The notes under the pieces: generated by a model
Database searches by the model: none
The model's input: only the letters and a program-made list of their open reading frames with translations
What the model was told of the DNA's origin: nothing
Assembly (NCBI GenBank): GCA_963693365.1
Contig: CAVNZM010000017.1
Location: forward strand, 1,279,989-1,343,988
Source: Amoebidium appalachense
Lineage: Eukaryota > Protista > Ichthyosporea
Reading direction: 5' to 3'
DNA: 64,000 nt
Translations under genes and position numbers: made by a program
In this document: positions 59,201 through 62,200 of the stretch, one piece after another
Numbering within the stretch: the first letter of the stretch is position 1
Layout of the letters: the number at the start of each line of letters is the position of its first letter

Positions 59201-62200
59201 TTTTATGATGTGTGGTGTGTGGTGTGATTCGTTTTATGTTGTGTGGTGTGTGGTGTGTGGTGTGATTCGTTTTATGATGTGTGGTGTGTGGTGTGATTCG
59301 TTTTATGATGTGGTGGATTCGTTTTATGATGTGTCGTGTGTGATGTGATTCGTTTTATGATGTGTAGTGTGTGGTGTGATTCGTCTGTCATATGTGGTGT
59401 GCCTTCCCCGCCAAGCTAAAAAGTAGTGTTGCTGATAACGAATGTGGAGTTGGTATGTTAAGGCTCCCACCTGGGGGGGGGGGGGGGGGGGGGGGGGATG
59501 TGTGCAAGCATTCAGAACAGCTTAGGGAGAAAATGACAAATAGAGTAGCAAGTAAATCGGGGGGCGGGGGGGGGGGGGGGGGGGGGGGGGGGGGGAGGGG
59601 GGGGAGGGGGGGGGGGGGGGGGGGGGGGGGGGAGGGAGGAAAGAAAGAAAGAAAGAAAGAAAGAAATAGGCTGAAGCACAGCGATGGATATTCCACAGAC
59701 ACTAAAAACCAACGTGTAGGCAGGAAGCACGATAAAGAAACAAACCCGGCCATCAGAGGGGCTATACACGGTATGCAAGAGCACAAACACACAACTTGAG
59801 AACATGTGGTGGTCCTTAAAAGGGCGGACTAAGAGGTAATACAAGGTAATAAGTGCGGGGGATGTATGTGCACCTTCATCGTCTTCAACCACCACTGAGC
59901 GTTTTCGTGGTGTGGAGGCACCGGACCCACCATGCTCTGAGCGGTGTTTCTTGGGTTTGCCCGCTGTGGAAACGATACAGCGTGTCAGTATCGTGTGCTG
60001 TGACCGAAGATATCTTCTTGCTGGCTGTGCTCTAAAATCATTAAATAAAAAGATCTGCTACATGCATGGTTAATAGAAAAGTGCCAGAAGAAGAAAAAGG
60101 TGCCCGGGGGAGGGGGGGGGGGGGGGGGGGGGGGGGGCAAAGAGTACGAAGTTCACATTCACACAATGCAGAATGCAAACCACACATAGAGCATGCAAAA
60201 CAAGCAACACCCATTCTAAGGTTGGAAGGGGGGGGGGGGGGGGGGGGGGGGGGGGGCACGTCATCCACAGTACCCAAGTTTCAACCCATTTCCCTTGTCA
60301 ACGAAACCCAACTTAAATGCTGCTTAGCTTGAACATGGGTGGGTGGGTGTGTGGGTGGGTGGGTGGGGTGGGGTGTGTGTGTGTTTGGGGGGGGGGGGGG
60401 GGGGATGGTGCAGAAGGCCAAACTTTGACACTGCAGCAAGTTTAAAGGGCATCAAGCCACACTTAAGGTAAGAGGTTAGGTTAAACGGGAAAGGGTTTGT
60501 GTCTGTTGGTGGCTGTGAGGATATATTTTATTTTAGGTGGGTGGGTGGGCAGGGGGAGGTTTGTTTGGGGGGGGGGGGGGGGGGGGGGGGGGGAGGGAGG
60601 TTTGTGGGGGGGAGGGGGGGGGGGGGGGGGGGGGGGGGGGATTCACATGGGACACACAGTACCAATTACAGTTGATAGCATGCATACAAGATGGGGCCCG
60701 TGTCACCCACAGGGACCCCCGGTGGGGCGCCGGGGGGGGGGGGGGGGGGGGGGGGGGGGGGGGGTTGAATGCGGAACACGGTACGAAGTACGCATACACG
60801 ACGAGAAGCATGGTGCAGGACACATGCAAAGGCAAACATTCAAGTATGCAACATCAGCCATGTGCACAGTATGCGTCATAAGCAGAGCCCATCCTCAGGG
60901 AGGACCCAAGTCATCAATTGCGCCTAAGTTTCGACCCCTTAGCCCGCGTATATACGACGCTCCAACTCAGACAGCAGCATCAACTGAACTTGGGCGGGTC
61001 AACCCGTCTTGATCAAAGACGAGCAGGGTTGCTTATGGAAGCAAGGTGAGCAAAACGGTGAAGATGTGTGTGCAAAATAATGCAGTGCAGCGAAAAATGC
61101 GTATGCGCTTACAGATGCACGACACAGAGGGGTCATAGGAGATCTAAGAAGAAGGCATGTTGGATGGCTTATGACGCCCAAAAAAGGAAGAAAAATGCTC
61201 CATTGAGGGGGGATCAGTTGTTTGAGGCGTGGACAGTCAGGGGGGGGGTTGGGGGAAACAGGTGTATAAATGGTGGTTGTGATGTTGGAGGTGACTTGTG
61301 TGTGCATGGATGTGTGGGAGTGGCGTGTACCCTATTGTTTCGATATTTTTCCTTTCGTTTTCTTTTTTTCTCTTTCTCTTTCTCTCTCTTTTTTTTTTTT
61401 CTTTTTTCTTTTTTTTTCTTTTTTTTCTTGGGGGGGGGGGGTTCAAAGCCATACTCGAATCTGTGCTTGCCGACCGTTTCAGTGTTTTCTGTGGCGTGGG
61501 TTGGCCAGGCTCCGGCTTGATCACTACCACATCCGCTTTGGGTAACTGATGCATAGGGGCAGGACGAAACTGGGGCACCGGCGCGCGCCCAGAACCAGGG
61601 GCGGGAGGGTTGGAATGAGGAATGGTTTTGTGTGGCGGCGGGGTTGCTTCGTTGCGTACGGGTGCGTGTTGGGGGTGCGGTTGGTGTGTGTTCGATGGTT
61701 TCTGTTGTTTTGTCTTCATGTCTGTGGATGCACGCCTCCCATCTGCGAAATTTTGCTCTTGCACGCTGTGTACATACGACTCGATGTCGGCTGCGGAAAG
61801 CAGCGGAAGGGGCCCAGGTGCAAATCCAGGTTGCACGGGAATTTGGGGGGGTTTCATATGTGGTGTTGGGGGGGGATACTGCTGCCACCCAGCGTTTGAA
61901 TTCGGCACCATGTTTGCATGTGAGGTGGGGTGTGTGGGGTGTGTGGGCCCCTGTAGCGGCCGCGGTTGGTGATTGGCGTGGCTTGCGACCGGGTAAGGCG
62001 CTCGGAATTGAGGAACGTGGTGGGGGGGTCTTTGCATTTGCGCAAATTGCGGAGAGGGGGCCGGTGGTCGGGGCGCATGCTGAGCCTGTGGGGGACCCTG
62101 AGGTTGGTGTGAGGGCGGCGGTTTTTGTTGTGGTCCCCCCGCGCTCGTTTTCTGTGGCGGGCGAGATGATTGCGTCATGACGGGGGTAGTGCTGGGGGGT

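Follow-up and report, generated by a model that had tools for sequence, protein, structure and literature searches.

A complete, rewired hammerhead core, likely self-cleaving after the GUU triplet that ends at 60964, lies near the 3' end of a likely non-autonomous Penelope-like (Naiad/Chlamys-type) repeat in the 64,000-nucleotide stretch analyzed here (the window); judging from the sequence, we give this reading a probability of about 70%. The motif is placed among the hammerhead ribozymes, with an unusual wiring that sets it outside types I to III; its structure is well supported, and its cleavage is predicted. As all of the hammerhead parts are present, in a scrambled and split order, it is likely a working ribozyme with a so far undescribed wiring, and since non-circular hammerhead permutations have been published (Eckert et al. 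2023, PMC10085705), its chemistry is likely the known hammerhead one. The sequence-only reading of this DNA had pointed to a structured, ribozyme-like, pseudoknotted RNA on a dispersed element, and this is borne out by the helices, the core bases and the 15 pieces of the element found in the window. Its proposal of a new RNA class was abandoned, given that the hammerhead core stands in exact register in three copies (N, F and C).

Layout of the motif

The pairs were read copy by copy (in one alignment, copy C sat one column off register in stem II), and the coordinates are collected in Table 1. Every hammerhead core base is present in N, F and C, and the register is exact, with G10.1-C11.1 before GAA, A15.1-U16.1, C15.2-G16.2, H17, and stem I abutting C3. 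In all three copies, GAAA lies between stem II (G10.1-C11.1) and stem III (A15.1-U16.1), CUGAnGA comes right after stem I, and an NUH triplet separates stems III and I. The residue H17 is a U and the triplet is GUU in these copies as well as in the partial copy M, and by analogy to the hammerhead core, a cut is predicted between 60964 and 60963. The conserved words around GAAAC and CCCUGA that had been singled out before are all present in their places.

The strands run in the order clamp, hairpin, 5' strand of stem II, bracket, cleavage strand and 5' strand of stem I, followed by the 3' strand of stem II with GAAA, the 3' strand of the bracket, the 3' strand of stem I, CUGAnGA and the clamp, so that stem II has its 5' strand upstream of the cleavage block. 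The circular order and the nested three-way junction of types I, II and III were not found in the motif, in which the blocks follow each other as cleavage site (S), GAAA (G) and CUGAnGA (C), the block order of type SGC. The crossing helix previously described just before GAAAC is stem II itself: its first pair is the canonical G10.1-C11.1, and GAAA follows without a gap, a finding at odds with the statement that the order of the words gives no stem II. For this helix, the counts first reported are confirmed for N (5 bp), F (6 bp) and C (4 of 5 pairs), M has 5 bp, and compensatory changes between families give it covariation. A stem II built on an intact CUGAnGA block was rejected, as the bases after A9 and those before G12 mispair in N, F and C (U.C, G.U and G.G), while the upstream strand pairs and covaries.

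The space between A9 and G10.1 is taken up by a U.U pair, a 3-bp clamp that extends into a 7-bp closing helix, and a hairpin. The closing helix forms 7 of 7 bp in N, F and C, as had been claimed, with three of the seven pairs altered on both sides in C. The clamp has the same sequence in the three copies and is therefore without covariation among them. Regarding the hairpin, the conserved sequence reported earlier is present, and its register is likely a different one, which led us to reject the pairing of ACCC with GGGU: all three minimum free energy (MFE) folds pair GCUC-GUCUU with AAGAC-GGGU; in N, the CCC freed by this register pairs with the GGG after CUGAGGAU.

The long stem that had been proposed is also present, with 13 consecutive pairs counted from the core in F. 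Kink-turns have as consensus a canonical stem, a 3-nt bulge and tandem G.A and A.G pairs, and these features can be read in N, F and C, where the long helix is broken by a 3-nt bulge and G.A and A.G pairs, the third pair being U.U in N and A.G in F and C. The kink-turn, the clamp, stem I and the GUU triplet are parts that go beyond the sequence-only reading.

Stem I has 4 bp in N, 2 in F and 3 in the C-family majority (C itself is mismatched at the first pair), it faces a C-rich linker, and it shows no covariation inside this genome. In addition, the MFE folds show an inactive form in which U17 is paired with A14, and the copies are unbroken across the predicted cut, none in the window beginning or ending there. 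The short stem I, the possible A14-U17 trap of the GUU triplet and the unbroken copies would all suit a hammerhead-derived scaffold that cleaves very slowly or not at all and is retained as a recognition signal for the reverse transcriptase (RT) and endonuclease of a partner. Such a scaffold is unlikely, considering that the catalytic bases are all kept in three diverged subfamilies and in the seven Naiad consensi described below, where the triplet is GUA and stem I has up to 6 bp, and that re-ligated circles, too, would yield copies with no break at the site.

Table 1. Positions in the window of the parts of the motif (copy N as reference), of the element copies and of other features.
Feature	Position	Strand	Remarks
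Closing helix, 5' strand	61030-61036	-	Pairs with 60878-60884
Clamp helix, 5' strand CCC	61026-61028	-	Pairs with GGG 60888-60890, after the U.U pair beside A9
Hairpin between A9 and G10.1	61002-61024	-	Base GCUC/GGGU, from MFE folds
Hammerhead stem II, 5' strand	60996-61000	-	G10.1 is 61000; pairs with 60933-60937
Bracket helix, 5' strand	60985-60994	-	Pairs with 60905-60913
Kink-turn	60979-60984	-	3-nt bulge, then G.A, A.G and U.U pairs with 60914-60916
Stem III and extension	60965-60978	-	U16.1 is 60965; pairs with 60917-60929
GUU cleavage triplet (predicted)	60964-60966	-	By analogy to the hammerhead core
Stem I, 5' strand GGAG	60960-60963	-	Pairs with CUCC 60899-60902
GAAA core strand (G12-A15.1)	60929-60932	-	Per-copy reading
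CUGAGGA core strand (C3-A9)	60892-60898	-	Per-copy reading
Element copy N, about 475 nt	60765-61240	-	Poly(C) at end; 5' limit approximate
Copy F, full core	43384-43536	-	G10.1 43501, H17 43466, G12 43438, C3 43404
Element carrying copy F	about 43299-43620	-	
Copy C, full core, diverged subfamily	20005-20160	+	G10.1 20041, H17 20075, G12 20105, C3 20140
Element carrying copy C	19888-20272	+	
Copy M, F-type, decayed	60138-60345	-	5'-truncated; CUGAnGA block lost
N-type copy	47004-47145	-	5'-truncated, between poly(C) tracts
N-type copy	52217-52360	-	5'-truncated, between poly(C) tracts
N-type copy	3458-3604	-	5'-truncated, between poly(C) tracts
F-type copy	41665-41774	-	5'-truncated, between poly(C) tracts
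3'-end pieces, further related subfamily	43618-43705, 47182-47268	-	Each shares its C-tract with another copy just downstream
Scc2/NIPBL-like gene	about 42000-62900	-	Cohesin_HEAT exon 43879-44247 and PHD exon 48370-48969 (Pfam)
Kinase exon	3707-3880	-	MNK1 and MNK2 are the best solved-structure matches
VIT1 iron/manganese transporter gene	13106-13912	+	Pfam
GH20 hexosaminidase gene, two exons	16650-19021	+	Pfam
Local tandem repeat arrays	21086-21599, 38886-39882, 63474-63946		Unrelated to the element

Folding, descriptor and database controls

Single copies fold modestly better than their shuffled versions (z of -2.36, -1.86 and -1.33 for the three copies), and the sense strand folds better than the antisense strand in all three, in agreement with the earlier suggestion of single-stranded RNA folding on the sense strand. 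A descriptor of the full plan matches N and F and misses C, which has private mismatches and a bulge. The same descriptor gave one match in 60 block-shuffled windows and none in 149 unrelated loci taken from pattern scans (29 viral loci, and 120 metagenome loci of an estimated ~320), a control that gauges its specificity alone, since the descriptor was built from copies N, F and C. With a relaxed descriptor, one further match in the window and one in a viral locus were obtained, versus two in 60 shuffles. Matches in the 149 viral and metagenome loci were set aside as chance matches, as the profile of the three copies never scored better than an E value of 0.014 and the strict descriptor found nothing in them.

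The Rfam check suggested by the sequence-only reading returned 127 matches at E values up to 5, none of which reaches the gathering score or belongs to a ribozyme family. This lack of a hammerhead match in Rfam, together with a block order and a split that break the published descriptors, would be expected of an RNA class unrelated to hammerheads, or of an HDV-like ribozyme, bearing the hammerhead words by chance. Such a coincidence is highly unlikely, with the words standing in the exact register given above and the plan descriptor matching only once in the shuffled windows. For the HDV-like plan (nested double pseudoknot, P1.1 and a catalytic C in J4/2), no HDV-type family is among the Rfam matches, and the hammerhead plan accounts for all helices, so the earlier remark that the HDV plan does not fit remains valid. 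Resemblances by eye to a box C/D snoRNA and to a 5S-derived SINE were discarded, having no support in Rfam.

The carrier repeat and its probable relation to Penelope-like elements

The carrier is a short repeat, with copies of 320-475 nt sited in poly(C) tracts. Of the 15 pieces found in the window with nhmmer, three have the full core, M has part of it, and the remaining 11 are shorter, being mostly 3' ends. Most of the pieces are 5'-truncated with a fixed 3' end, and the 3' flank is at least 66% C in 12 of the 15. Several truncated copies begin at the C-rich linker preceding CUGAnGA, starts that would be consistent with annealing to a C-tract target.

Because no match to an RT, an endonuclease or GIY-YIG was obtained in the 150 of 623 window frames that were scanned (at least 60 aa, chosen by length and complexity), the link to Penelope-like elements rests on the RNA architecture and the target preference. 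Naiad/Chlamys elements have an open reading frame (ORF) with an N-terminal GIY-YIG, a CxC linker and an RT, and copies as short as these would be expected to lack matches to it. In the sections of Craig et al. 2021 (PMC8557442) covered here, Naiad and Chlamys elements share with the repeat the 5'-truncated copies and the microsatellite targets, including (C)n in Chlamys; unlike them, the copies in the window are only 320-475 nt long, and no ORF was found. According to the same sections, the insertion preference of Chlamys is (C)n and (CA)n and that of Naiads (TA)n. The clues to the subclade thus disagree, as the fold points to Naiad and the target to Chlamys.

Family letters from public contigs

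The repeat family is very abundant. Public contigs aligned on N numbered 12,359 in run X1, 7,809 in X4, 214 in X9 and 11 in X14, and those aligned on C 2,442 (X1), 2,660 (X4), 96 (X9) and 28 (X10), figures that are contig counts and not copy numbers and that exclude the small-share runs X15-X20, X22 and X23. For the core positions of N, the GAAA and CUGAGGA strands included, no variant was listed at a share of at least 3% in the four runs. The majority letters of the N family at 60923 and 60926 convert two G.U pairs of stem III to Watson-Crick pairs, and 60959 and 60995, the sites that commonly vary, fall outside the pairs of the model. Two minor variants disrupt pairs, one of them in stem I, at 60901 (U>C, 18% in X1), and the other in the hairpin, at 61005 (G>A, 16% in X4).

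Family-majority letters also mend mismatches in copy C. Three predictions of such letters were fixed before the contigs were aligned, and two of them came true: 20076 A>G (~100% in all four runs), which brings stem I to 3 bp, and 20101 T>A (97-100%), which brings stem II to 5 of 5 pairs. The third, a G at 20079, failed, with the A retained in C-family contigs. Among the changes that were not predicted, 20067 T>G (97-100%) mends stem III, and at 20135 the majority letter is C in place of T (67-99%), at the cost of a possible distal A-U pair.

The depth of the C-family contigs declines toward the 5' end, and one X1 contig of this family has a head-to-tail joint of 332 nt; neighboring copies in the window are possibly separate insertions in one C-tract. 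The joint would fit a dimeric hammerhead, in which the core is made by two RNA molecules or tandem units and the apparent double pseudoknot is intermolecular. Dimeric Penelope hammerheads have reportedly been published, and a monomer would need its stems I and II to reach across more than 20 bp of helix. Even so, a dimer is quite unlikely here, as the copies in the window are single and the hinge, which a monomer needs, is kept at the same place of the bracket in every example read.

Comparison with known hammerheads

The main text of Eckert et al. 2023 (PMC10085705) reports in vitro cleavage for the non-circular orders SGC, CSG and GCS, and one bacterial GCS candidate as the only case found in genomes of known organisms. 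The motif resembles type SGC (HRIMA-1 and its variants, PMC10085705) in having the order site, GAAA and CUGAnGA with a full core, at least two pseudoknots, and the 5' strand of stem I followed by the 3' strand of stem II. It differs from SGC in several respects: the stem II partner, which in SGC follows CUGAnGA, is here upstream of the site, two helices bridge A9 and G10.1, and the intact-block test failed. Also, it has a kink-turn, whereas the word "kink" is absent from that main text, and it belongs to a genomic eukaryotic repeat, whereas the SGC examples described there come from metatranscriptomes. Compared with that main text, what is new is that the CUGAnGA block is split and that the carrier is a likely retroelement, and no earlier description of the split form was found in the literature searched (most subscription papers lay outside its scope). 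A 2026 retrozyme preprint (10.64898/2026.07.22.740005) mentions Naiad, in the portion consulted, only as a clade.

In the same main text, CUGAnGA was assumed to stay within 1-2 nt of its stems (PMC10085705), a stated rule that is broken here, with CUGAnGA being separable from the flanking stems; therefore, descriptors used for finding ribozymes need widening. With this repeat, a ribozyme of non-circular permutation would also be very abundant in eukaryotic genomes, whereas environmental RNA is the source of the SGC examples published so far.

Like the type I hammerheads of the Penelope, Neptune and Hydra pLTRs and of non-LTR retrozymes, the core lies close to the 3' end of a unit that is likely Penelope-like, and an extra base after A9 and GUU or GUA triplets are shared with the canonical hammerheads of the Hydra clade. 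Those type I hammerheads have the order C, G, S and form nested three-way junctions, many of them minimal and in tandem, unlike the motif described here, which is dispersed, larger and pseudoknotted.

The same plan at the 3' ends of Naiad elements

Naiad and most Chlamys elements were reported to have no canonical hammerheads (Craig et al. 2021, PMC8557442). Some of them hold the core words in an order that does not fit, labeled "HHR_core" and "HHR_half_core", cases for which the sections of PMC8557442 covered here give no structure. Within the supplement of that study, the same order as in our motif was found by eye at the 3' ends of seven Naiad consensi, namely from Beroe, three from Acropora, two from octopus, and one family of part 12. 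These seven come from word-search matches in the Naiad file of 54 families, their names being taken from the following header and the table order. Their stems II have 6 bp, their stems I have 2-6 bp with unrelated sequences, and their triplets are GUA; one Acropora consensus has one mismatch in stem I and one in stem II. Both clamp and hairpin stand out clearly in the consensi from Beroe and Acropora and in the part-12 family, octopus showing them only in part, and the Naiad clamps are longer and covary. The hairpin base GCUC/GGGU is common to the Beroe and Acropora Naiads and the motif in the window. At the hinge of the bracket, the octopus consensi have a kink-turn in reverse orientation, and the others a bulge or a junction. 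The plan was not found in the Chlamys passages of the supplement that the word search reached. These consensi offer an explanation, open to testing, for the apparent lack of hammerheads in Naiad elements.

In parts 13-16 of the same supplement, six Naiad 3' ends of the nematode section appear, by eye, to have the block order CSG, and so does one family in part 16. Where our motif is split, between A9 and G10.1, this family has just one additional U.

Proposed folding and role

From the observed sequence, pairing potential, covariation, abundance, 5' truncation and poly(C) flanks, we infer how the RNA may fold, where it may be cut and what this may serve. Stems I and II would join the loop that tips the long helix to the flanks on either side of its base; the kink-turn would fold this helix back, thereby letting the two stems meet, and the clamp and the hairpin would hold A9 beside G10.1 despite there being no direct backbone between them. 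The likely role of the ribozyme would be to release unit-length RNAs from long or tandem transcripts, perhaps with subsequent circularization, and the RT and endonuclease of a partner would copy the RNA into C-tracts from the fixed 3' end of the element. The cut would lie 167-199 nt upstream of that end, and copies that are unbroken across it would require a template that was either uncleaved or a re-ligated circle.

Beyond the rewired hammerhead core preferred here, we tentatively consider that the motif is a four-block hammerhead, which would lie outside the six permutations thought possible, that CUGAnGA is detached from stem II in it, and that its folding relies on the kink-turn hinge, to which a host protein of the L7Ae family would bind. 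Gated by this protein, the ribozyme would time the cleavage and circularization of the Penelope-like RNA, an arrangement that would be conserved as far as the ctenophore, coral and octopus Naiads.

Setting in the window

The window is eukaryotic in character, with GT-AG introns, poly(C) tracts and CA repeats, and its Pfam matches comprise VIT1, GH20, Cohesin_HEAT and PHD exons. A search with VIT1 yielded no clear relative, one with an Scc2 exon yielded no match, and an atlas search returned generic HEAT clusters only. Copies N, M and F lie in sense between exons of the Scc2/NIPBL-like gene (intron limits predicted from GT/AG signals), and any intact ribozymes in its introns may be able to cleave the pre-mRNA. 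All element copies found inside this gene are sense to it, except for a weak match on the + strand at 56475-56571.

A separate region, 28860-29060, which the relaxed descriptor matches, has CUGAUGA (28983) followed by a 7-bp hairpin on its + strand. On the - strand, GAAAC is followed by CUGAGGA, and a poly(G)/(C) tract adjoins. The region is possibly a decayed hammerhead-bearing repeat from another family.
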